The translations under genes and the position numbers were made by a program. From the sequence record OZ035741.1: a stretch of 64,000 bases of DNA; one strand, written 5' to 3'. The notes beneath the pieces were generated by a model that saw only the letters and a program-made list of their open reading frames with translations, had not been told where the DNA came from and ran no database searches. Shown here piece by piece: positions 56,601 to 63,585 of this stretch (its first letter is position 1; the number at the start of each line of letters is the position of its first letter). The stretch comes from Felixounavirus LF82P2.

Positions 56601-58016
56601 ATGAGCGAATTATTTAAACATGCGCACCTTCATGCAGGTCGAACTGAAAATGGTGCTGTAAACCATACTTCATCAATGTCTGCTCTTGTAGACTTTTACA
56701 AAGCTGCTGGTTCAAGCCGTAGCAATGTAGAAATCTTACCAGACCTGTTCTACAAAGCTTTGCGTGAGGATGTTGATGTTGCAGTTCGTATTTTACTGCA
56801 TATGCGAGATGTACGAGAAGGTATGGGTGAGCGTAAAGCCTTCAGAACTGTTTTGCTTCAAGCAATTGAAGATAAAGTTTTAGAGCCTACACAGGTTCTT
56901 CGCATTATGGATAAGATTGCAGAACTTGGTCGTTTTGATGACTTCAAAATCTTCGTAGGTACTCGTTTCGAGACAGATGCCTTCAAACATTTAGAAGCAG
57001 CATTACTAGACCCTGCAACAGCAGGTTTGGCAGCTAAGTGGTTACCACGAGTAAAACCACGTCACAAACAGTTTGTAAAACGTTTCTGCAAGTTTGCAAA
57101 CTTGAGTGAGAAGGAGTATCGCACACTGTTATCTGCACTGTCTGATACGGTTGAGCAAAAAATCTCTGCTAATGAGTTTGGTAAGATTGACTACAGTAAG
57201 ATTCCTTCACTTGCTGCTGCACGTTACCAAAAACTCTTTAACCGTAAAGATGGAGAACGCTACAAAGCTTACATTGAGTCCTTATCAAAGGGCGAGACTA
57301 AGATTAATGCTGGTGCTGTTTATCCATACGATGTGATTAAATCTGTTAAGTATGGTAATGCAGATGTTGCTAATGAGCAGTGGAAAGCACTACCAAACTG
57401 GATGGCAGAGGGTGAAAACATTCTATGTATGTCTGATGTTTCAAGTTCAATGTCTTGGGTGAATTTTGGTTCAATTACTGCTCTTGATATTGGTGTTTCA
57501 CTTGCATTGTATGTAGCAGAACGTAATACAGGTTGCTTTAAGAATGAGTTGATGGTTTATTCAACAAACCCTCACTTCATTGAACTGAGTGGTGATTTAC
57601 GAAACCGTCATCGTCAGGTGATGCGACACGTTGAATATGGCTCAACTAACTTACAAGCAGCTTTTGACCGTATTCTTGAGACAGGTAAAAGAAACAACTT
57701 GACTCAGAAAGATATGCCAAGTAAGCTTATCATCTTCTCCGATATGGAGTTCAATCAGGTTGATGGAGCTAACGGTCGTACAAACTTTGAAGCAATTCAG
57801 AGTAAGTACAAAAAAGCTGGATATGAGATGCCACAACTGGTATTCTGGTACTTAGCAAACCGTAATGGTACTTGCGAAGTATCTGTTAAGGATAACGGTG
57901 TAGCAATGGTATCAGGGTTCTCTCCAGCCACTTTAAAAGCTCTGCTTGGTGGTGAGAAGTTTGACCCAATCAGTGTAATGCTCAAAGCAGTAATGATTGA
58001 CCGTTATATCTGGTAA
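56601..58016 (+). CDS. von Willebrand factor A (vWA) domain protein
   Basis: 471 aa; MIDAS-like DVSSSMS (DxSxS) near residue 280 followed by Rossmann-like pattern; helical N-terminal domain. Confidence 0.4.
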   Translation: MSELFKHAHLHAGRTENGAVNHTSSMSALVDFYKAAGSSRSNVEILPDLFYKALREDVDVAVRILLHMRDVREGMGERKAFRTVLLQAIEDKVLEPTQVLRIMDKIAELGRFDDFKIFVGTRFETDAFKHLEAALLDPATAGLAAKWLPRVKPRHKQFVKRFCKFANLSEKEYRTLLSALSDTVEQKISANEFGKIDYSKIPSLAAARYQKLFNRKDGERYKAYIESLSKGETKINAGAVYPYDVIKSVKYGNADVANEQWKALPNWMAEGENILCMSDVSSSMSWVNFGSITALDIGVSLALYVAERNTGCFKNELMVYSTNPHFIELSGDLRNRHRQVMRHVEYGSTNLQAAFDRILETGKRNNLTQKDMPSKLIIFSDMEFNQVDGANGRTNFEAIQSKYKKAGYEMPQLVFWYLANRNGTCEVSVKDNGVAMVSGFSPATLKALLGGEKFDPISVMLKAVMIDRYIW

Positions 58017-58171: not shown

Positions 58172-58248
58172 AAAAGTTTATCTCTGTTTAGCTCAGCTTG
58201 GTAGAGCGTTCCGTTTGGGGCGGTAAGGCCGGAGGTTCAAGTCCTCCA
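58172..58248 (+). tRNA. tRNA-Pro (anticodon TGG)
   Basis: 7 bp acceptor stem, T-loop GGTTCAAGTCC, anticodon loop TTTGGGG, encoded CCA. Confidence 0.7.
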
Positions 58249-58265
58249 ACAGAGACCAAATTAAT

Positions 58266-58343
58266 GTTCCAGTAGACAAAATGGTATAGTCACCACTCTT
58301 TCAAAGTGGACATCTGAGGGTTCAAATCCCTTCTGGAACGCCA
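58266..58343 (+). tRNA. tRNA-Glu (anticodon TTC)
   Basis: Acceptor GTTCCAG/CTGGAAC, anticodon stem CCACT/AGTGG, loop CTTTCAA. Confidence 0.65.
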
Positions 58344-58434
58344 GTTTTGACAGAAGACCAAATACAGCAAACTTAATCTTATTCATCTGAAGGTAAATCG
58401 GACAAAGAAGAGATTTGGTCTGGTCATTAAGAAT

Positions 58435-58511
58435 TGCGGGTATAGAGAAAGGGCGTCTCACATGTCTCATTAGCATGGTATCGGCAGGTTCGACTCCTGC
58501 ACCCGCCTCCA
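58435..58511 (+). tRNA. tRNA-Met (anticodon CAT), atypical (T at position 37, mismatch at pair 1-72)
   Basis: Anticodon stem CATGT/GCATG, loop CTCATTA, T-loop GGTTCGACTCC. Confidence 0.5.
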
Positions 58512-58594
58512 AATTTACAGAAGACCGTTTACAGCAACATTTATTAAATTTTTAGCGGAAAAATTGAAAGATACGGTCTGGTAATACTAAACAT

Positions 58595-58671
58595 GGTTAG
58601 GAAGCACATAAGGTATGTGCGGTCGCCTGTTAAGCGAATGGCACAGGGTTCGAATCCCTGACTAACCGCCA
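58595..58671 (+). tRNA. tRNA-Asn (anticodon GTT)
   Basis: Anticodon loop CTGTTAA; T-loop GGGTTCGAATCCC; CCA encoded. Confidence 0.65.
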
Positions 58672-58740
58672 AATTTAGGAGAGAAGCGATTGCTCACCGA
58701 TTTGTAAGGTGCAAGTCCTTAGCCTGAATAGAAATTAAAT

Positions 58741-58828
58741 GTGTCGTTATCCCGTAGATGGTAGCGGTGGGGACTGTAAATCCCTTGTCATTGAGACTCG
58801 GTAGGTTCGACTCCTACACGGCACACCA
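58741..58828 (+). tRNA. tRNA-Tyr (anticodon GTA), long variable arm
   Basis: Acceptor GTGTCGT/ACGGCAC, anticodon stem GGGGA/TCCCT loop CTGTAAA, 88 nt. Confidence 0.7.
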
Positions 58829-58833
58829 ATAAA

Positions 58834-58911
58834 GGTTATGTAGTTTAATTTGGTTAAAATACTCCCCTGTCACGGGAGATGATGAGGGTTCAAATCCCTT
58901 CGTAACCGCCA
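58834..58911 (+). tRNA. tRNA-Asp (anticodon GTC)
   Basis: Acceptor GGTTATG/CGTAACC, anticodon stem CTCCC/GGGAG loop CTGTCAC. Confidence 0.7.
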
Positions 58912-59081
58912 ATTTTGAGAGGGCTATTTAGCCCCTCCCTTAAAGGGTTCTTACGAGTATCCTTTAAAGGAGCAGAAGACCAAATACAGCAAGTTACTTA
59001 AAATTTCAAGCCAATTTAATTTTGAAAAATTTAAAACTTGGTCTGGCTCAACAAATTTACAGAAGACCGTTTACAGCAAAA

Positions 59082-59178
59082 CTTAAACAATCTATTTCTC
59101 GGTAAAGAAAAGGCGAAGGTTCGATTCCTTCACTCGGCAGATGTCGAGTTGGTGTAATGGTAGCACTTAAGATGATAA
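59082..59178 (+). pseudogene. tRNA halves in permuted order (3' half upstream of 5' half); possible circularly permuted tRNA or rearranged pseudogene
   Basis: 3' part 59082-59139 (CTTAA, variable-arm hairpin, T-arm GAAGG-TTCGATT-CCTTC, acceptor ACTCGGC) then 5' part 59143-59178 (acceptor GTCGAGT, D-arm, TTAAG, loop ATGATAA). Confidence 0.35.
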
Positions 59179-59339
59179 ACAACGGTCTGGTAATTATCTT
59201 TGTAGATAAGTTATTAAGCTTACCTGTGAGTATGCGACCACAAAGGGTGAAAGGGTAAATTCTAGATTTAAACCCAAAAAGGCACATCGCTACAGACCTT
59301 AAGCAAGTCTGGGTAGCTTATCTACAAAGATAATTTAAT

Positions 59340-59415
59340 GGAAGTGTAGCAGAATGGTGATGCGGCAGACTTTTAATCTGACAGGCGATGGGTTCGAATC
59401 CCTCCACTTCTACCA
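59340..59415 (+). tRNA. tRNA-Lys (anticodon TTT)
   Basis: Acceptor GGAAGTG/CACTTCT, anticodon loop CTTTTAA, T-loop GGGTTCGAATCCC. Confidence 0.65.
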
Positions 59416-59419
59416 ATAT

Positions 59420-59496
59420 GGTTCAGTCGCAGATAAGGTAATGCAAGGGTCTCATAAGCCCTATGAATGTGGGTTCGAATCCCATCTGAACCTCCA
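59420..59496 (+). tRNA. tRNA-Met (anticodon CAT), GGG/CCC anticodon stem (initiator-like feature)
   Basis: Anticodon arm AGGGT-CTCATAA-GCCCT; acceptor GGTTCAG/CTGAACC fully paired. Confidence 0.65.
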
Positions 59497-59498
59497 AT

Positions 59499-59573
59499 TG
59501 TGGGTTAGCATAAATGGTAATGCAAACGGCTGATAACCGTTAGAAGAGGGTTCGATACCCTCACCTACAACCA
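59499..59573 (+). tRNA. tRNA-Ile (anticodon GAT)
   Basis: Anticodon arm AACGG-CTGATAA-CCGTT; T-loop GGGTTCGATACCC. Confidence 0.7.
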
Positions 59574-59591
59574 AGTTCAATAAAGTTGTTG

Positions 59592-59620
59592 ACATTGAGA
59601 TGTGACTACTTTATAGTAAC
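59592..59620 (+). promoter_or_regulatory. sigma70-like promoter inside tRNA cluster (TTGACA-17-TATAGT)
   Basis: Consensus -35 and good -10 in spacer after tRNA-Ile. Confidence 0.45.
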
Positions 59621-59821
59621 CTTAGTTTTCGTTGCGTAGCGTCTATTTTGCAAATTTAAAATAAATGCAAACGACAATGTTTTTCTGGCAGTAGCTTGAT
59701 AGGCTAAACACCAGTGAGGTCTTCCAATCCCTCATCAAAGAATTTGGCGTACTCGCCCACGGTATGATTAATAAGGTGGGCATCTTTAAGGGCTTTCTAA
59801 GAGAGTCTTTAAAGATAATTA

Positions 59822-59903
59822 CGGGGCGTATCTCAGCGGTCTTCTAAACCGCCGTTAACCGAGTAAGTGGAGTATGCGGGTTCGAGTCCTGCCGCCTCGA
59901 CCA
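59822..59903 (+). tRNA. atypical tRNA-like gene (possible Arg, anticodon TCT), non-canonical arm arrangement
   Basis: Acceptor CGGGGCG/CGCCTCG plus T-arm GCGGG-TTCGAGT-CCTGC and CCA; perfect hairpin GCGGT-CTTCTAA-ACCGC sits where the D-arm should be. Confidence 0.4.
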
Positions 59904-60046
59904 ATTTAGTTAGCAGATTACTTAGACGACCTAAGCGGGTCTTCCTGTAGGGAGGTGGTCTGTATCTCATGTTTTCCAGAACATGTAAATAATCTGAGAA
60001 GGGGCTTTACAGTGTTGAGATAATACGGTAAGCTTCGAATTATAGT

Positions 60047-60129
60047 ATGGGACGATGTTAAGACTCTAAGGCATGAGCAACGGCCTCCAAAACCGTTTCA
60101 AAGGGGTTCAACTCCTCCGTCCCATGCCA
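60047..60129 (+). tRNA. tRNA-Trp (anticodon CCA), enlarged D region (83 nt)
   Basis: Perfect acceptor ATGGGAC/GTCCCAT, anticodon arm ACGGC-CTCCAAA-ACCGT, T-loop GGGGTTCAACTCC. Confidence 0.5.
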
Positions 60130-60142
60130 AAGTCTTATTAGG

Positions 60143-60230
60143 GGTAGGTAGCGGCTAATGGCAGCCAAACAGTCTTGAAAACTGTTGCCACTGTAGAGAT
60201 ACGGTGAGGGTTCGACTCCTTTACTTACCG
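60143..60230 (+). tRNA. tRNA-Ser (anticodon TGA), long variable arm, CCA not encoded
   Basis: Anticodon arm ACAGT-CTTGAAA-ACTGT; long variable arm; T-loop GGGTTCGACTCC. Confidence 0.65.
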
Positions 60231-60488
60231 CCTAATAAGATTTTTAAAGCCAAGCTTCATTCGGATGTTGCTTTGGTATCCCTCGTGTATTGTCGTACAC
60301 ACTGATAAAACACCTAGTAGGTGTCACGGAGAAGAGATAATATCAAGCTCTCCAAAGGTTCTAGTCACCGGATTAAACAAGACTATGCAAAGACCTTTTA
60401 GGTCTTTTTAGAGGGCTTCTAAGGTTATTACAGCTTGTTGTGGAACCTTGTTGCTTAGGTTCTTAGAAGTTCTCTAAAAAGATTTAAT

Positions 60489-60566
60489 GGGAGATTGACG
60501 GTAATTGGTAAACCTATCTCGCTTAGAACGAGATGTTTGAGGGTTCGAATCCCTTGTCTCCTACCA
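60489..60566 (+). tRNA. tRNA-Leu (anticodon TAG) with short variable loop
   Basis: Anticodon arm TCTCG-CTTAGAA-CGAGA perfect; discriminator A; T-loop GGGTTCGAATCCC. Confidence 0.55.
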
Positions 60567-60573
60567 AATTAAT

Positions 60574-60649
60574 GCAGGTGTAGCAAAATGGTTATGCGGC
60601 TGACTCTTAATCAGTAAGACGATGGGTTCAATTCCCTCCACCTGTACCA
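60574..60649 (+). tRNA. tRNA-Lys (anticodon CTT)
   Basis: Scaffold similar to tRNA-Lys(TTT); anticodon arm GCTGA-CTCTTAA-TCAGT. Confidence 0.55.
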
Positions 60650-60655
60650 AACAAT

Positions 60656-60731
60656 GGGGTCATAGTTTATATGGTTAAAATTCGAGTTTTGCAAACTTGG
60701 GAACTGAGTTCAATTCTCAGTGACTCCACCA
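60656..60731 (+). tRNA. tRNA-Ala (anticodon TGC)
   Basis: Acceptor GGGGTCA/TGACTCC with G3-T70 wobble; anticodon loop TTTGCAA. Confidence 0.65.
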
Positions 60732-60737
60732 ATTAGT

Positions 60738-60812
60738 GCATCCATAGTTTAAACGGGAAAATTACAGTCTTCCAAACTGAGGTTGAGGGTTCGATTCCCT
60801 CTGGATGCTCCA
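60738..60812 (+). tRNA. tRNA-Gly (anticodon TCC)
   Basis: Acceptor GCATCCA/TGGATGC; anticodon arm ACAGT-CTTCCAA-ACTGA. Confidence 0.65.
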
Positions 60813-60826
60813 AATTAAGGTGTGAT

Positions 60827-61240
60827 ATGAAAATATGCAGTACTTGCAGAATACCAAAAGATGAAAGCTTATTCCATAAGAATAAGAACAAGAAAGACGG
60901 TCTTCAAAGTCAATGCAAAGATTGTGCAAGACTCCGTGATGCAAAGAGTTATCAAGCAAATGATAAAAGGAAAGAGGCTATTAAAAGCACTCGTAACTTC
61001 AAGAGAGAGCATAACAAGACTCTAGCTAGAAGGTACAAAGCTTTATGCAAATGTCATATATGTGGTGAGAAAGAACCAGTTGCACTGGATTTACACCATA
61101 CAGACCCTTCCCAGAAAGATTTGAATCCTGCATCACTTTATTCATACTCCACAAAAAGATTAAAAGATGAAATCAGAAAGTGCATTGTCTTGTGCGCTAA
61201 CTGTCACAGAAAAGTACATGCTGGTATCATAAAAGTTTAA
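60827..61240 (+). CDS. HNH endonuclease embedded in tRNA cluster
   Basis: Cys-rich N-terminus and C-terminal DLHHTD..CANCHRKVH HNH motif. Confidence 0.6.
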   Translation: MKICSTCRIPKDESLFHKNKNKKDGLQSQCKDCARLRDAKSYQANDKRKEAIKSTRNFKREHNKTLARRYKALCKCHICGEKEPVALDLHHTDPSQKDLNPASLYSYSTKRLKDEIRKCIVLCANCHRKVHAGIIKV

Positions 61241-61241
61241 T

Positions 61242-61318
61242 GCTGCTTTCGTATAATTGGCTATTACACATCCCTTGTAAGGATGGAAATGCAGGTTCGA
61301 GTCCTGTGAGCAGCACCA
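61242..61318 (+). tRNA. tRNA-Thr (anticodon TGT)
   Basis: Anticodon arm CATCC-CTTGTAA-GGATG; T-loop GGTTCGAGTCC. Confidence 0.7.
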
Positions 61319-61413
61319 ATTCAGAGGTCAAGTGAAAGACCGCTGGTGTCAACTGAAGACCGTAACAAATTCCACGGAGTTGAGTTAGCGGCACAACTTC
61401 AGACCTCTTTCAT

Positions 61414-61488
61414 ACTCGCTTAGTTTATATGGTAAAACATCACCCTTACAAGATGAAGAAAAAGGTTCAAGTCCTTTAGTGAGTACCA
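61414..61488 (+). tRNA. tRNA-Val (anticodon TAC), one mismatch in anticodon stem
   Basis: Acceptor ACTCGCT/AGTGAGT; anticodon arm TCACC-CTTACAA-GATGA (C-A mismatch). Confidence 0.5.
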
Positions 61489-61489
61489 T

Positions 61490-61567
61490 GTTCCAGTATC
61501 CCAATTGGCAGAGGATGCAAGCTCAAACCTTGTACTAGTGACGGTTCGAATCCGTCTTGGAACACCA
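61490..61567 (+). tRNA. tRNA-Leu (anticodon CAA) with short variable loop
   Basis: Anticodon arm GCAAG-CTCAAAC-CTTGT; discriminator A; T-loop GGTTCGAATCC. Confidence 0.55.
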
Positions 61568-61572
61568 ATTTT

Positions 61573-61648
61573 GCAGGATTAGTTCAAATGGATAGAGCAA
61601 CAGTCTACGAAGCTGTTAATAGGGGTTCGAATCCCTTATCCTGCGCCA
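61573..61648 (+). tRNA. tRNA-Arg (anticodon ACG)
   Basis: Acceptor GCAGGAT/ATCCTGC; anticodon arm ACAGT-CTACGAA-GCTGT. Confidence 0.7.
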
Positions 61649-61667
61649 ATTTAAAGAGGCTATTTAG

Positions 61668-62225
61668 ATGAGATATTTGAAGTATGCTTCATGGATTTTC
61701 TTAGCTTTGTTAGAACCATTTGCAGCAATCTTAGCAGTTATCTTAGCACCTTTTGTAGTTCCATTTTACAGTGAGAAGAAAGGACACTTACCTTTCGGAT
61801 TTAGATGGATGGAAACTTATGACAACCCAATTGATGGTGATGAAGGTCACGTTAAAAGATGGGCTAATATTAGATGGATTGGTAAGCTTGGTGTCTATAT
61901 GCAGAGAGTCGGTTGGCTCTGGAGAAACAAAGCTTATAACTTCTCTTACCATGTGTTAGGAAGAGATGTAAAAGATGTTACTAAGTGGAAAGGTAATATC
62001 AACGTAAGTTCTAACCCTGAAGATAATCAGACAGGTTATCTCCTAATGTGGAACAGCAATGCTTGGGGATTATTCGCTTTTATACCATCAATTAAAATCT
62101 TTGGTAAACAGTTCTACTGGAGAATTTATATTGGGTGGAAGCTAAAAAGTGTTGTCCCAGAAGAAAGAGCATTCTCAAGGGAAAGAGTTATGTTGGCATT
62201 CTTTATTCATCCACTAAGAAATTAA
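61668..62225 (+). CDS. hypothetical membrane protein embedded in tRNA cluster
   Basis: 185 aa; hydrophobic N-terminal segment, Trp-rich. Confidence 0.4.
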   Translation: MRYLKYASWIFLALLEPFAAILAVILAPFVVPFYSEKKGHLPFGFRWMETYDNPIDGDEGHVKRWANIRWIGKLGVYMQRVGWLWRNKAYNFSYHVLGRDVKDVTKWKGNINVSSNPEDNQTGYLLMWNSNAWGLFAFIPSIKIFGKQFYWRIYIGWKLKSVVPEERAFSRERVMLAFFIHPLRN

Positions 62226-62233
62226 AGATTTAA

Positions 62234-62309
62234 AGGGGATTAGTTTACAAGGTTAAAACCTCGGTCTTTGAAATCGAAGAAGTTGGTTCAATTCCAACAT
62301 CCCCCGCCA
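62234..62309 (+). tRNA. tRNA-Gln (anticodon TTG)
   Basis: Anticodon arm TCGGT-CTTTGAA-ATCGA; T-loop GGTTCAATTCC; pair 1-72 mismatched. Confidence 0.6.
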
Positions 62310-62311
62310 AT

Positions 62312-62390
62312 GCTCCATTACTCCAATTGGCAGAGAGGCCAGACTTAAAATCTGTGTTATGTATCGGTTCGAATCCGATATGGAGTACCA
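62312..62390 (+). tRNA. tRNA-Leu (anticodon TAA) with intermediate-length variable region
   Basis: Anticodon loop CTTAAAA; discriminator A; D region similar to tRNA at 61490. Confidence 0.5.
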
Positions 62391-62395
62391 AATTT

Positions 62396-62471
62396 AGCGG
62401 TATAGCATAACTGGCAATGCAACAGTCTCTGAAGCTGTCTTATTAAGGTTCAAATCCTTATGCCGCTGCCA
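62396..62471 (+). tRNA. tRNA-Gln (anticodon CTG)
   Basis: Anticodon arm ACAGT-CTCTGAA-GCTGT; T-loop GGTTCAAATCC. Confidence 0.55.
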
Positions 62472-62502
62472 CTTCTAAGGGTTCTTACGAGAGTCCTTAA
62501 AT

Positions 62503-62578
62503 GTGGCCTTATCATAAATGGTAATGACCCATGCTGTGAACATGGTCTATACGGGTTCAAATCCCGTAGGTCACCCCA
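62503..62578 (+). tRNA. tRNA-His (anticodon GTG)
   Basis: Anticodon arm CCATG-CTGTGAA-CATGG; discriminator C. Confidence 0.7.
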
Positions 62579-62583
62579 ATTTA

Positions 62584-62660
62584 TAGTCCAAGTAGCTTAT
62601 ATGGTTAAAGCGCGTGTCTGAAAAACATGAGAAGAGGGTTCAAATCCCACTGGACTACCA
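62584..62660 (+). tRNA. tRNA-Phe (anticodon GAA)
   Basis: Acceptor TAGTCCA/TGGACTA; anticodon loop CTGAAAA. Confidence 0.6.
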
Positions 62661-62676
62661 ATTTCAAAGGTGCTTA

Positions 62677-63411
62677 ATGAAAGAGATGACAGAACAAGGT
62701 AAGGAGATTTTTAATCTCTTAAAAACCGGTAAAGGGTTTTCTAACCCACTTATTACTGGTGCAGCAGTTCTCGGTGGAACCGTAGCTGCTTCTACATCAC
62801 TTGTAAGCTCTATTAGTTCTGTAACAGACCCTACAATGCAGGAGAAACTTGTTGCTGCTGGACTTACAACAGTCCTTCTAAACAGCTTTACAACAAGCCT
62901 TACAAGCACTACAGCAACTACTAAGACCCTGACAGACTACGGTCAAAAATCTATTGATGAGTTTTCATCACGTATGCAGGTAGCAAAGGGATATTCCAAT
63001 GTTATGGGTGCAGCAGGAGAACAAGTTGGTTGTACACCGTTCAGTGGTATTATGGGTGTTGCTACAGAATATGGTCAAAAAGCTATTGATACGATTAACA
63101 GTACACTAGAGAGTGTTAACAATGTATTAAGTGACTTACAAGACGCTATTGACAAGGGTCTTGATACTGTTTCTGATTTAGCTAACCAAGCTGTCAGTAA
63201 GATTAATGAAGGTATCTCAAAGATTACAGCTTATGCAGATGAAGTTGTGCAGATGATTGAAGAAGAATCTGCCCTTATTGCAGAGTACCTTAAAACGAAT
63301 ATCAATGGGTTCTTAGCAGGTATCTTACCAGACTGGTTTGATGATGCCTGTAAAACTGGTGTAATTGACACTATTGCAACACCAGAAATGAAGAACGCAT
63401 TACAGAAATAA
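62677..63411 (+). CDS. hypothetical protein embedded in tRNA cluster
   Basis: Track ORF 62614-63411 overlaps tRNA-Phe; start moved to ATG 62677 after AAAGG RBS; Thr/Ser-rich then helical. Confidence 0.45.
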   Translation: MKEMTEQGKEIFNLLKTGKGFSNPLITGAAVLGGTVAASTSLVSSISSVTDPTMQEKLVAAGLTTVLLNSFTTSLTSTTATTKTLTDYGQKSIDEFSSRMQVAKGYSNVMGAAGEQVGCTPFSGIMGVATEYGQKAIDTINSTLESVNNVLSDLQDAIDKGLDTVSDLANQAVSKINEGISKITAYADEVVQMIEEESALIAEYLKTNINGFLAGILPDWFDDACKTGVIDTIATPEMKNALQK

Positions 63412-63412
63412 T

Positions 63413-63505
63413 GGAAGATTAACCCTAAAAGGTAAGGGAGCAGTTTGCTAAACTGACAGTAGCTGAGAAATCGGTGTACCAGTTCAAGTCTGGTATCTTC
63501 CTCCA
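63413..63505 (+). tRNA. tRNA-Ser (anticodon GCT), long variable arm
   Basis: Perfect acceptor GGAAGAT/ATCTTCC; anticodon loop TTGCTAA; 93 nt. Confidence 0.65.
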
Positions 63506-63509
63506 ATTT

Positions 63510-63585
63510 GAATCCGTGACAGAAATGGCTATGTGCCTGTCTGCAAAACAGGTTTATAAGGGTTCGAGTCCCTTCGGATTCTCCA
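63510..63585 (+). tRNA. tRNA-Cys (anticodon GCA)
   Basis: Acceptor GAATCCG/CGGATTC; anticodon arm CCTGT-CTGCAAA-ACAGG. Confidence 0.7.

Follow-up and report, generated by a model that had tools for sequence, protein, structure and literature searches.

Structure of the leucine tRNA genes

The tRNA cluster of the phage Felixounavirus LF82P2 raises the question of whether tRNAs that have leucine anticodons and lack a long variable arm are leucine tRNAs, and by which enzyme they would be charged. In the window, i.e., the whole 64,000-nt stretch of record OZ035741.1 analyzed here, ARAGORN identifies 25 tRNA genes between positions 58182 and 63585, including three tRNA-Leu genes. These lie exactly where the original prediction had placed them (60489, TAG; 61490, CAA; 62312, TAA), and Rfam agrees. 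The three genes and the comparators from the same cluster are as follows:

60489..60566, + strand: tRNA-Leu(UAG), type I, 78 nt including the encoded CCA (ARAGORN; Rfam, 44.5 bits)
61490..61567, + strand: tRNA-Leu(CAA), type I, 78 nt including CCA (ARAGORN; Rfam, 43.6 bits)
62312..62390, + strand: tRNA-Leu(UAA), type I, 79 nt including CCA (ARAGORN; Rfam, 47.5 bits)
58741..58828, + strand: comparator tRNA-Tyr(GUA), 88 nt, long variable arm kept (ARAGORN)
60143..60232, + strand: comparator tRNA-Ser(UGA), 90 nt, long variable arm kept, G73 (ARAGORN)
63413..63505, + strand: comparator tRNA-Ser(GCU), 93 nt, long variable arm kept (ARAGORN)

All three leucine genes match Rfam RF00005 above the gathering score (43.6-47.5 bits, E 5e-8 to 5e-7), and in 3/3 the acceptor end is A73, the discriminator base first proposed for them, followed by an encoded CCA. 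Counted over Sprinzl positions 44-48, the variable loop is UGUUU (5 nt) in the UAG tRNA, ACUAGU (6 nt) in the CAA tRNA, and GUUAUGU (7 nt) in the UAA tRNA; each loop ends in U48, and a helix is impossible in any of them. The shortness of these regions had been recognized correctly, but not their sizes, which had been put at about 4, 6, and 9 nt. A gene length of 78-79 nt leaves no space for a long arm. Automated folding yields normal cloverleaves in which the canonical long arm is not found, and a long arm concealed until refolding is ruled out, as ARAGORN, Rfam, and RNAalifold all give a loop of 5-7 nt.

The UAG tRNA has a G1.U72 pair, the D region UGACGGUAAUUGGUAAACCUA, whose D stem has 3 bp, the D loop AAUUGGUAAA, and the anticodon loop CUUAGAA with A37; one surplus nucleotide between the acceptor and D stems makes its 8-10 connector irregular. 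The CAA tRNA combines the D arm UCCC-AAUUGGCAGA-GGA, which includes the 15-mer CCCAATTGGCAGAGG used below as a family marker, with the anticodon loop CUCAAAC. The same D loop, AAUUGGCAGA, recurs in the UAA tRNA (D arm CUCC-AAUUGGCAGA-GAG), together with G1.U72 and the anticodon loop CUUAAAA. The anticodon stems are well paired, as first described, except in the UAA tRNA, where a C27.U43 mismatch leaves 4/5 pairs formed.

Each of the three tRNAs thus presents a leucine anticodon in a canonical 7-nt loop with U33 and a purine at position 37, and a variable region within the span of about 4-7 nt without a helix that characterizes type I tRNALeu; the long variable arm of class II tRNAs (>10 nt, stem-loop) is missing. 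A leucine-type D arm (3-bp D stem, 13.22 unpaired, A14 A15 N N G18 G19 N A20a) is present in all three. The combination of a long arm and G73 that would mark a tRNASer-like or other class II identity is not seen, the three genes having A73 and no arm. These genes of a Felix O1-like coliphage are real tRNA-Leu genes that follow the type I plan, with a short variable loop.

The Ser and Tyr tRNAs of the cluster are long, as are E. coli leuZ, leuX, and leuW, so the short-arm contrast is real and specific to leucine. Among the 25 tRNAs of the phage, the AAUUGG D loop occurs only in the three leucine tRNAs. N73 obeys the E. coli identity rules in 21/25 phage tRNAs, and the exceptions (both CAU tRNAs, Ser(GCU), and Pro) include no leucine tRNA. 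In a control sample of viral contigs, a short variable loop was found in 14/50 leucine tRNAs (~28%) vs 1/34 serine tRNAs (p = 0.003).

Identity elements and comparison with host tRNAs

E. coli leucyl-tRNA synthetase (LeuRS) requires A73, A15-U48, G18G19, A20a, and the tertiary pairs joining the D loop to the T loop, while the anticodon and the long arm are dispensable (Giege and Eriani 2023; PMC9976931). Constructs of E. coli tRNALeu lacking the anticodon and variable arms were still charged (Larkin et al. 2002, per Giege and Eriani 2023; PMC9976931), and A14 is also counted among the determinants (Fan et al. 2019, introduction; PMC6614811). U8-A14, A15-U48, G18G19/U55C56, U54-A58, A20a, and A73 are all present in the three phage genes. 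Every known E. coli LeuRS determinant is thus kept, the arm excepted. Neither G3.U70 nor G34 nor any other foreign determinant was found in the three tRNAs. The phage tRNAs fit the description of the armless constructs, in that they lack the long arm and have A73 and the D/T-loop tertiary contacts intact; the constructs of Larkin et al. were, however, engineered in vitro substrates, whereas the phage tRNAs are natural genes.

The corresponding E. coli K-12 tRNAs, leuZ(UAA), leuX(CAA), and leuW(UAG), are 87, 85, and 85 nt long and contain a 13-15 nt variable stem-loop that is absent from the phage genes. Overall identity between the two sets is only ~55-58%, yet they have in common the anticodons, A73, U8/A14, A15/U48, and the 3-bp D stem; G1.U72 is common to leuZ and the phage UAA tRNA. 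The D loop, AAUUGGYARA in the phage and AAU(U/C)GG(U/C)AGA in the host genes, is equal in length and nearly the same in sequence, including A20a. In the alignments, a gap of 7-10 nt falls in the variable arm, and the D loops are ungapped but for an additional base that precedes A14 in the UAG tRNA. The two UAG tRNAs differ at position 37, which is A37 in the phage and G37 in leuW.

Codon usage

The proposed check of codon usage shows that TTA, TTG, and CTA make up 23%, 16%, and 11% of the leucine codons in the window. In alignments of the phage NrdA, NrdB, and NrdD with their E. coli counterparts, these codons face leucine in 32/74 cases (43%), compared with 32% for CTT/CTC/CTG in the same alignments and a background of 8.7%. 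Such an alignment gives the meaning of the codons, not which tRNA does the reading. As TTA, TTG, and CTA align with leucine in these proteins, leucine identity is the best reading of the three tRNAs. Of the two options left by the original prediction, that of unusual class-I-like leucine tRNAs is backed by the leucine-type D arm, the LeuRS identity elements, the constrained family described below, and the codons aligning with leucine; the alternative, an identity other than leucine, draws no support from the sequence.

Distribution in phages and Actinobacteria

The 15-mer CCCAATTGGCAGAGG served as the family marker and retrieved 114 tRNAs from viral contigs and a further 100 from genomes. Leucine anticodons occur in 213/214 of the tRNAs bearing it, and all lengths fall between 74 and 78 nt. 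Parsed viral members (n = 150) have A73 in 149/150, U48 in 149/150, and a variable loop of 5 nt in 133/150, and the parsed genomic members have A73 in 98/98. For 60 diverse members including the three window genes, RNAalifold predicts a plain cloverleaf of 21 pairs in which a variable helix is absent; compensatory changes were found in 21/21 consensus pairs. Two subtypes can be told apart, one of the form CCC-AAUUGGCAGA-GG whose variable loop is NNAGU, the other of the form NGG-AAUUGGYAUAC whose loop is GUUUU.

Comparison with related phages, another of the checks proposed at the outset, recovers the short form in ~250 Felixounavirus records, where the region is 90-100% identical and annotated with three tRNA-Leu genes, and in Kolesnikvirus phiEa104. 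The CAA tRNA is 95-100% identical in 247/312 matched phage records. Phage phiEa104, from the sister genus, encodes three short leucine tRNAs along with long Ser and Tyr tRNAs; its Leu(CAA) is 73% identical to that of the window, and the stem changes are compensatory. The pseudogene hallmarks of broken stems, lost invariant bases, and lack of constraint across relatives do not apply to the three genes.

The same architecture was found in Erwinia, T5-like (SP15), Acinetobacter, Bacillus, Lactobacillus, Enterococcus, Mycobacterium, and Streptomyces phages. Carriers whose hosts have only class II tRNALeu are the T5-like E. coli phage SP15 and the Acinetobacter, Bacillus, Lactobacillus, and Enterococcus phages. 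SP15 encodes a short tRNA-Leu(UAG) that is 75% identical to the one in the window. The tRNA-Leu of T5 is likewise encoded by a phage, in a large tRNA cluster with HNH endonuclease genes scattered through it, but this tRNA-Leu(UAG) of 85 nt keeps the long arm, whereas SP15, a close relative of T5, has two short leucine tRNAs instead. A family restricted to actinophages is ruled out: G+C content is under 50% at 90/112 viral loci, and the hosts of isolates include Gammaproteobacteria and Firmicutes.

In many Actinobacteria, short tRNA-Leu(UAA/CAA) genes are native and syntenic, with an amino-acid permease, an oxidoreductase, a binding protein, and an ANTAR regulator as neighbours. Type I tRNALeu is the native reader of UUA/UUG in many of these bacteria, and probably the sole one. 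An origin of the cellular copies as prophage genes is ruled out for most of them by conserved housekeeping synteny across actinobacterial genera. A BLAST search of 5,426 complete E. coli genomes gave no match to type I tRNALeu genes in prophages or plasmids.

Type I leucine tRNAs in the literature

According to reviews, tRNALeu is long-armed everywhere but in animal mitochondria (PMC9976931). The original prediction likewise took bacterial tRNA-Leu to be normally class II, which is correct for E. coli but does not extend to all bacteria, given S. coelicolor and many Actinobacteria. The S. coelicolor type I tRNALeu(CAA) combines a leucine anticodon with a variable loop of 5 nt (Fan et al. 2019, Nucleic Acids Res 47:6369; PMC6614811). 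In vitro, E. coli LeuRS (EcLeuRS) did not charge this tRNA and is said to charge type II only; among prokaryotic LeuRS, only the Streptomyces enzyme was concluded to charge both types (PMC6614811). The leucine-specific domain of EcLeuRS is reported by the same group to favour a large variable loop. In that study alone has a natural type I tRNALeu been offered directly to EcLeuRS.

As in the phage, the type I tRNALeu of S. coelicolor occurs alongside Ser and Tyr tRNAs with long arms; its charging needs a loop of at least 5 nt, and its LeuRS is independent of the arm. It is, however, a chromosomal, actinobacterial tRNA served by its own LeuRS, adapted via the leucine-specific domain, whereas the hosts of the phage genes (E. 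coli, Salmonella) have no type I tRNALeu, and the E. coli enzyme failed on the Streptomyces tRNA. Moreover, the S. coelicolor tRNA has C48 (loop ACAGC) and does not use A73 as an identity element, in contrast to the U48 and A73 of the phage genes. Because of C48 and these other identity rules, the failure of EcLeuRS may not transfer to the phage tRNAs.

Animal mitochondrial tRNALeu(UUR/CUN) are another known instance of short-armed leucine tRNAs. They are organellar, often structurally weak, and charged by a dedicated mitochondrial LeuRS; the phage tRNAs differ in having canonical D and T loops (G18G19, UUCGA) and stable stems. A full-text search found no paper on phage type I tRNALeu and, for bacteria, only Fan et al. 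2019. The genes themselves are already known: their annotation as tRNA-Leu goes back to the Felix O1 genome paper, which lists them without comment. Azam 2024, which concerns the tRNAs of SP15, does not mention leucine.

Function of the phage tRNAs

The three genes are probably functional type I leucine isoacceptors that the phage makes and that receive leucine from the host leucyl-tRNA synthetase (probability about 0.78). Gene structure, conservation, identity elements, codon meaning, and the wide occurrence of the architecture, all shown here, point to this function. Expression, leucylation by E. coli or Salmonella LeuRS, and a benefit to the phage we infer from them. On this reading, E. coli LeuRS ignores the anticodon and the long arm and reads A73 together with the shape of the core and elbow; the features read there (A14, A15:U48, G18G19 pairing with U55C56, A20a, and the 3-bp D stem) are all retained. 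With a synthetase blind to the arm, its loss would be possible in leucine tRNAs; Ser and Tyr tRNAs retain it because their synthetases use it. The anticodons are expected to read UUA/UUG, UUG, and CUA, the last also covering other CUN codons through wobble. The phage, at 39% G+C, uses UUA, UUG, and CUA far more than its host, and the tRNAs may therefore top up, or during infection replace, scarce host isoacceptors.

No LeuRS gene is found among the large ORFs of the window, which encode PolA, NrdA/B/D, a primase-helicase, NAPRTase, RIIA, an Ig-like protein, and an RNA-binding protein; the scan was confined to the window, the other 25 kb of the genome lying outside it. The available part of the Felix O1 genome paper does not mention a phage LeuRS. 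For the RNA-binding protein, which is encoded upstream, a PDB sequence search gave no match.

Counting against leucylation by the host are the reported failure of EcLeuRS on the S. coelicolor tRNALeu and the reported preference of its domain for a large variable loop; the C27.U43 mismatch of the UAA tRNA and the irregular 8-10 connector of the UAG tRNA also count against full function. In line with the failure of EcLeuRS on a natural type I tRNALeu (PMC6614811), the phage tRNAs might be made but be poor substrates or non-substrates of the host LeuRS, with a role outside normal decoding, e.g., by serving as decoys or sponges against defence nucleases that target tRNAs, as signals for processing the polycistronic tRNA transcript, or as primers. 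Phage tRNA-Tyr and tRNA-Lys are known to counter tRNA-cleaving defences (Azam 2024), and as type I tRNALeu is absent from the 5,426 complete E. coli genomes, the host LeuRS never needed to read one. A decoy, on the other hand, needs neither conserved A73, CCA, U33, and purine 37 nor varied leucine anticodons and the full LeuRS set, and the anticodons match the codons overused by the phage. The same architecture also natively reads UUA/UUG in many Actinobacteria, where it is probably the only reader, and therefore works in translation, so that a purely non-decoding role is improbable. It is very improbable that, without the long arm, another synthetase attaches a non-leucine amino acid, leaving UUA, UUG, and CUA recoded or blurred. 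The class I shape, A73, and A35/A36 are indeed shared by several further identity sets, such as those of Phe, Ile, and Val; the foreign determinants G3.U70 and G34 are nevertheless absent, the D-loop architecture is of the leucine type, and TTA/TTG/CTA face leucine in NrdA/B/D at least as often as the other leucine codons do (43% vs 32%). Since these codons are about half of the leucine codons of the phage, miscoding would be very costly.

The two irregularities could also be taken as signs of decaying pseudo-tRNAs, in which the arm was deleted and function lost, and tRNAscan-SE marks some other Felix O1 tRNAs as pseudo. Decay is scarcely credible in view of the 95-100% conservation in ~250 genomes, the orthologues in another genus that hold the fold through compensatory changes, and a loop fixed at 5-7 nt rather than raggedly deleted; Cove and Rfam scores are normal. 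A further proposal addresses the cause of the shortness and does not conflict with a leucine function: rather than being neutrally lost, the arm may have been shed under selection, as an escape from a host factor (a nuclease or a nucleotidyltransferase toxin, for instance, or cross-recognition by SerRS) that detects either the long arm of tRNALeu or an anticodon loop of the host type. About a quarter of the phage tRNA-Leu in the control sample are short vs none in E. coli genomes, and the UAG tRNA has A37 in place of the host G37. Related short Leu(UAG) tRNAs, 75% identical, in unrelated coliphages (Felix O1-like and SP15), with T5 remaining long, suggest transfer and retention. Selection of this kind is nonetheless rather unlikely: the analysis identified no defence system targeting tRNALeu via the arm, Actinobacteria have the form natively and without evident pressure of this sort, and neutral loss permitted by LeuRS accounts equally well for the leucine-specific pattern. 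Functional leucine isoacceptors charged by the host enzyme remain the preferred reading.

Biological significance

For this window alone, the result is modest, as the genes most likely do an ordinary job. They are not unique either, the plan being common in phages and native in many Actinobacteria. Tentatively, the short-armed leucine tRNAs might represent an alternative architecture spread by phages that works in hosts having only long-armed tRNALeu (E. coli, Salmonella, Acinetobacter, Bacillus, Lactobacillus, and Enterococcus). In one version, the LeuRS of these bacteria would charge natural type I tRNALeu, against the published view that only the Streptomyces and mitochondrial enzymes do so; in the other, phages would retain the armless form as a means of evading a host factor that acts on host tRNALeu. 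As armless leucine tRNAs are conserved in two unrelated coliphage groups and make up about a quarter of the control sample, either a wider range of LeuRS or a non-canonical use of the RNA is predicted. In either version, the textbook rule of class II tRNALeu everywhere except in animal mitochondria fails for a sizeable share of phage tRNA-Leu genes and for many Actinobacteria, which bears on tRNA identity rules, on the annotation and interpretation of phage tRNA sets, and on the design of compact or orthogonal leucine tRNAs.

The three tRNA-Leu genes

On the + strand of the window, ARAGORN places 25 tRNA genes from 58182 to 63585, and three of them combine leucine anticodons with short variable regions:

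60489-60566, + strand, tRNA-Leu(tag), 78 nt (ARAGORN)
61490-61567, + strand, tRNA-Leu(caa), 78 nt (ARAGORN)
62312-62390, + strand, tRNA-Leu(taa), 79 nt (ARAGORN)

In the ARAGORN cloverleaves, all three possess a 7-bp acceptor stem (with G1.U72 in the UAG and UAA tRNAs), a 3-bp D stem, a 5-bp T stem, A73 and an encoded CCA, and they score 43.6-47.5 bits with the Rfam tRNA model (gathering score 29). The original prediction of short-armed Leu-anticodon tRNAs with discriminator A73 at 60489, 61490 and 62312 is thus confirmed by ARAGORN, by Rfam and by parsing. Its well-paired anticodon stems are indeed 5 bp long, the only flaw being a C.U mismatch in that of the UAA tRNA; the predicted variable loops of about 4, 6 and 9 nt are short as claimed, with parsed values of 5 (UGUUU, UAG), 6 (ACUAGU, CAA) and 7 nt (GUUAUGU, UAA). 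Long arms are kept by tRNA-Tyr (88 nt) and two tRNA-Ser (90 and 93 nt) of the same cluster.

Region 60400-62700 matches Felixounavirus LF82P1 (OZ035762.1) at 100%, and Salmonella phage Felix O1 and ~250 further members of the genus, from Escherichia, Salmonella, Shigella and Citrobacter, at 90-99%; the annotated records among them label the same three genes tRNA-Leu. The Felix O1 genome paper gives Leu TAG, CAA and TAA as 78, 78 and 79 nt and passes over their shape without comment.

Other elements of the tRNA cluster

Several further elements lie in or beside the cluster:

56601-58016, + strand, 471-aa protein directly upstream of the tRNA genes (PHROG 850 'RNA-binding protein'; Pfam DUF2828 and DUF7788)
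59516-59820, + strand, sub-threshold Rfam matches to permuted tmRNA (31.4 bits, gathering score 47) and tmRNA (16 bits)
59822-59903, + strand, conserved tRNA-like RNA (Rfam tRNA 31.7 bits) without an ARAGORN call
60827-61240, + strand, HNH endonuclease (PHROG 2255, E 1.6e-40) between tRNA-Gly and tRNA-Thr

The tRNA-like RNA has a 7-bp acceptor stem, a linker UAUCUCA where the D arm would be, a 5-bp stem whose loop, CUUCUAA, is invariant (anticodon UCU; Arg AGA/AGG), a conserved stretch of ~22 nt in place of the variable loop, a normal T arm, A73 and an encoded CCA. Compensatory changes occur in all three of its stems. Homologues with 80-100% identity are present in 262 phage records, which include unrelated groups (Klebsiella T5-like phages, 121Q, Justusliebigvirus, Vequintavirinae and a Vibrio phage); that of jumbo phage 121Q is annotated as tRNA-Leu(taa). 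AGA accounts for 29% of the window's Arg codons, and the window contains no ordinary tRNA-Arg(UCU). Within the adjacent segment, the stretch near 59665-59700 (AAUAAAUGCAAACGACAAUG...GCAGUAGCUUGA) looks like the resume codon and tag of a tmRNA; ARAGORN calls no tmRNA, and the resemblance may be due to chance. A sequence search of the PDB gives no relative for the 471-aa protein, whose location beside the tRNA genes and this unusual tRNA-like RNA may be significant. For many relatives, the match covers only 82% of the 2.3-kb region and falls into two pieces; a segment like the HNH gene is therefore present in some and absent from others, which fits a mobile endonuclease.

Probable leucine identity and codon meaning

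A73 is crucial to E. coli leucyl-tRNA synthetase (LeuRS), which also needs A15-U48, G18G19, A20a and the D/T-loop tertiary pairs but requires neither the anticodon nor the long arm: truncated tRNALeu without both arms is still charged, given an intact A73 and elbow (Giege and Eriani, PMC9976931). Fan et al. 2019 (PMC6614811) add A14 to this set. A73, U8/A14, A15, U48, G18G19, A20a and the UUCGA T loop are present in all three window genes. Aligned with leuZ, leuX and leuW from the E. coli K-12 genome, they show a single large gap, of 7-10 nt, at the variable arm; the host D loop AAU(U/C)GG(U/C)AGA corresponds to AAUUGGCAGA or AAUUGGUAAA in the phage, equal in length and nearly equal in sequence. 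Among the 25 phage tRNAs, the AAUUGG D loop occurs only in these three. The discriminator is as E. coli rules predict (G for Glu/Asn/Asp/Gln/Arg, U for Gly/Cys, C for His, A for Leu, etc.) in 21 of the 25, the exceptions being two CAU tRNAs and Ser(GCU), with U73, and Pro, with A73. The tRNA-Ser(GCU) (63413-63505, + strand) thereby differs from the G73 used by E. coli SerRS and found in the other tRNA-Ser (60143-60232). Position 37 is A in the tRNA-Leu(UAG) of the window (60489-60566, + strand), of Escherichia phage SP15 (L369) and of T5 (L246), whereas leuW has G37, an m1G37 site; the anticodon loop thus differs from that of the host's isoacceptor.

Codon analysis also points to leucine. Across 51 long ORFs, Leu codons are TTA 23%, TTG 16%, CTT 27%, CTC 6%, CTA 11% and CTG 16%; CTG makes up about half of host Leu codons. 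When phage NrdA, NrdB and NrdD are aligned with the E. coli proteins, TTA/TTG/CTA stand opposite Leu at 32 of 74 positions (43%) and CTT/CTC/CTG at 25 of 78 (32%). The background is 8.7%, and the codons of the three tRNAs therefore mean leucine in this phage.

The type I tRNA-Leu family

With the CAA gene as query, BLAST aligns annotated tRNA-Leu genes from phages of Erwinia, Mycobacterium and Streptomyces without gaps. As in the window, these short Leu tRNAs (74-78 nt) lie beside long Ser and Tyr tRNAs (ARAGORN), and they share the D arm CCC-AAUUGGCAGA-GG. An exact scan for CCCAATTGGCAGAGG returned at least 120 loci in viral contigs and at least 120 in genomes. The motif lies within at least 114 viral tRNAs, which among the matches listed are all 74-78 nt long and carry Leu anticodons, of all six kinds, in 113 of 114 cases; at least 100 genomic tRNAs contain it, with Leu anticodons and 74-78 nt in 100/100 of the matches listed. 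Of 150 unique viral members that were parsed, 133, 13 and 3 have variable loops of 5, 6 and 7 nt, respectively, and A73 and U48 are each found in 149.

Automated folding gives plain cloverleaves: with 60 diverse members including the window genes, RNAalifold predicts 21 pairs, every one with compensatory double changes, and A73 and U48 are invariant. Two subtypes can be distinguished. The window CAA and UAA genes carry a D arm of the CCC-AAUUGGCAGA-GG type, and the UAG gene resembles the SP15-like type (NGG-AAUUGGYAUAC, loop GUUUU), being 75% identical to SP15 Leu(UAG).

Distribution and frequency

A panel of 23 members matched 599 phage records (BLAST), sorted by the first word of the organism name into Salmonella (199), Mycobacterium (107), Escherichia (99), Streptomyces (47), Erwinia (29), Vibrio (20), Enterococcus (12) and Acinetobacter (9), among others. 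ARAGORN finds short Leu tRNAs in Acinetobacter phage Bestia (77 and 76 nt), Lactobacillus phage LP65 (three), Enterococcus phage phiSHEF16 and Bacillus phage BCP78 (one long and one short). The T5-like E. coli phage SP15 has two, UAA and UAG (both 77 nt, loop GUUUU; L369 5999-6075 and 10396-10472), whereas T5 has at the syntenic place a long-armed Leu(UAG) of 85 nt beside tRNA-Ser(UGA) (L246 11625-11709). The stem sequences are unrelated, which suggests gene replacement rather than deletion. A mainly actinophage origin of the viral copies is ruled out, as 90 of 112 loci among the matches listed have less than 50% G+C.

In a less biased sample (120 viral loci fetched via an unrelated class I D-arm motif), 14 of 50 tRNA-Leu were short (<=79 nt; 28%, Wilson interval 17-42%), 13 of them with A73 and intact arms, compared with 1 of 34 tRNA-Ser (Fisher p = 0.003). 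Arm loss is thus frequent and leucine-specific. The long arm is used by bacterial TyrRS. It is used by SerRS too, and not by LeuRS (Giege and Eriani, PMC9976931), so this specificity fits synthetase biology.

Genomic copies are, among the matches listed, mostly actinobacterial (Nocardia, Mycobacterium, Rhodococcus, Gordonia, Corynebacterium, Arthrobacter), being near-identical tRNA-Leu(UAA) or (CAA) of 75-77 nt (contigs L126-L245, e.g., L130, L131, L152, L163 and L183). Conserved housekeeping flanks surround them, with an amino-acid permease upstream in 35 loci among the matches listed; most of these copies are therefore native genes rather than prophage cargo. By comparison, the three window and two SP15 genes have zero BLAST matches in 5,426 complete E. 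coli genomes, and in E. coli the architecture comes only with phage.

Charging and function

Streptomyces coelicolor has a type I tRNALeu(CAA) beside four type II isoacceptors; its LeuRS (ScoLeuRS) charges both types and was named the only prokaryotic LeuRS to do so, at least 5 loop nucleotides are needed, and with E. coli LeuRS the type I tRNA was left wholly uncharged (Fan et al. 2019, PMC6614811). This is the sole published assay of the E. coli enzyme on a natural type I tRNALeu. There, type I tRNALeu is viewed as a relic kept in some Streptomyces and mitochondria, and phages go unmentioned. However, the S. coelicolor tRNA has C48 and lacks the U48 of the A15-U48 pair required by E. coli LeuRS, and its system does not use even A73, whereas the phage genes have both U48 and A73. 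Given these different identity rules, we infer that this failure does not extend to the phage tRNAs. From the comparative data, their charging by E. coli LeuRS is predicted.

An ordinary leucine function of the three window tRNAs is put at a probability of about 0.78. Of the two readings in the original prediction, the LeuRS identity elements, the D loop and the codon meaning favour unusual class-I-like Leu tRNAs over a non-Leu identity; neither G3.U70 nor another foreign determinant is found in any of the three genes, and a different amino acid, or pseudogenes, retains little probability. A role outside decoding is improbable. Within an ordinary leucine function, the short arm may help the phage escape a host factor or may be neutral.

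Within the full texts searched, the phrase "type I tRNALeu" stands only in Fan 2019, and armless phage Leu tRNAs are not mentioned; the kind is therefore already known, and its phage members, with their breadth, appear not to have been described before. The window tRNAs are new instances of this little-appreciated kind, and the native actinobacterial range of tRNA-Leu(UAA) and (CAA) far exceeds the lone published S. coelicolor case. The window alone is of moderate interest, which is raised somewhat by how broad the pattern is and by its direct conflict with the substrate range published for E. coli LeuRS.
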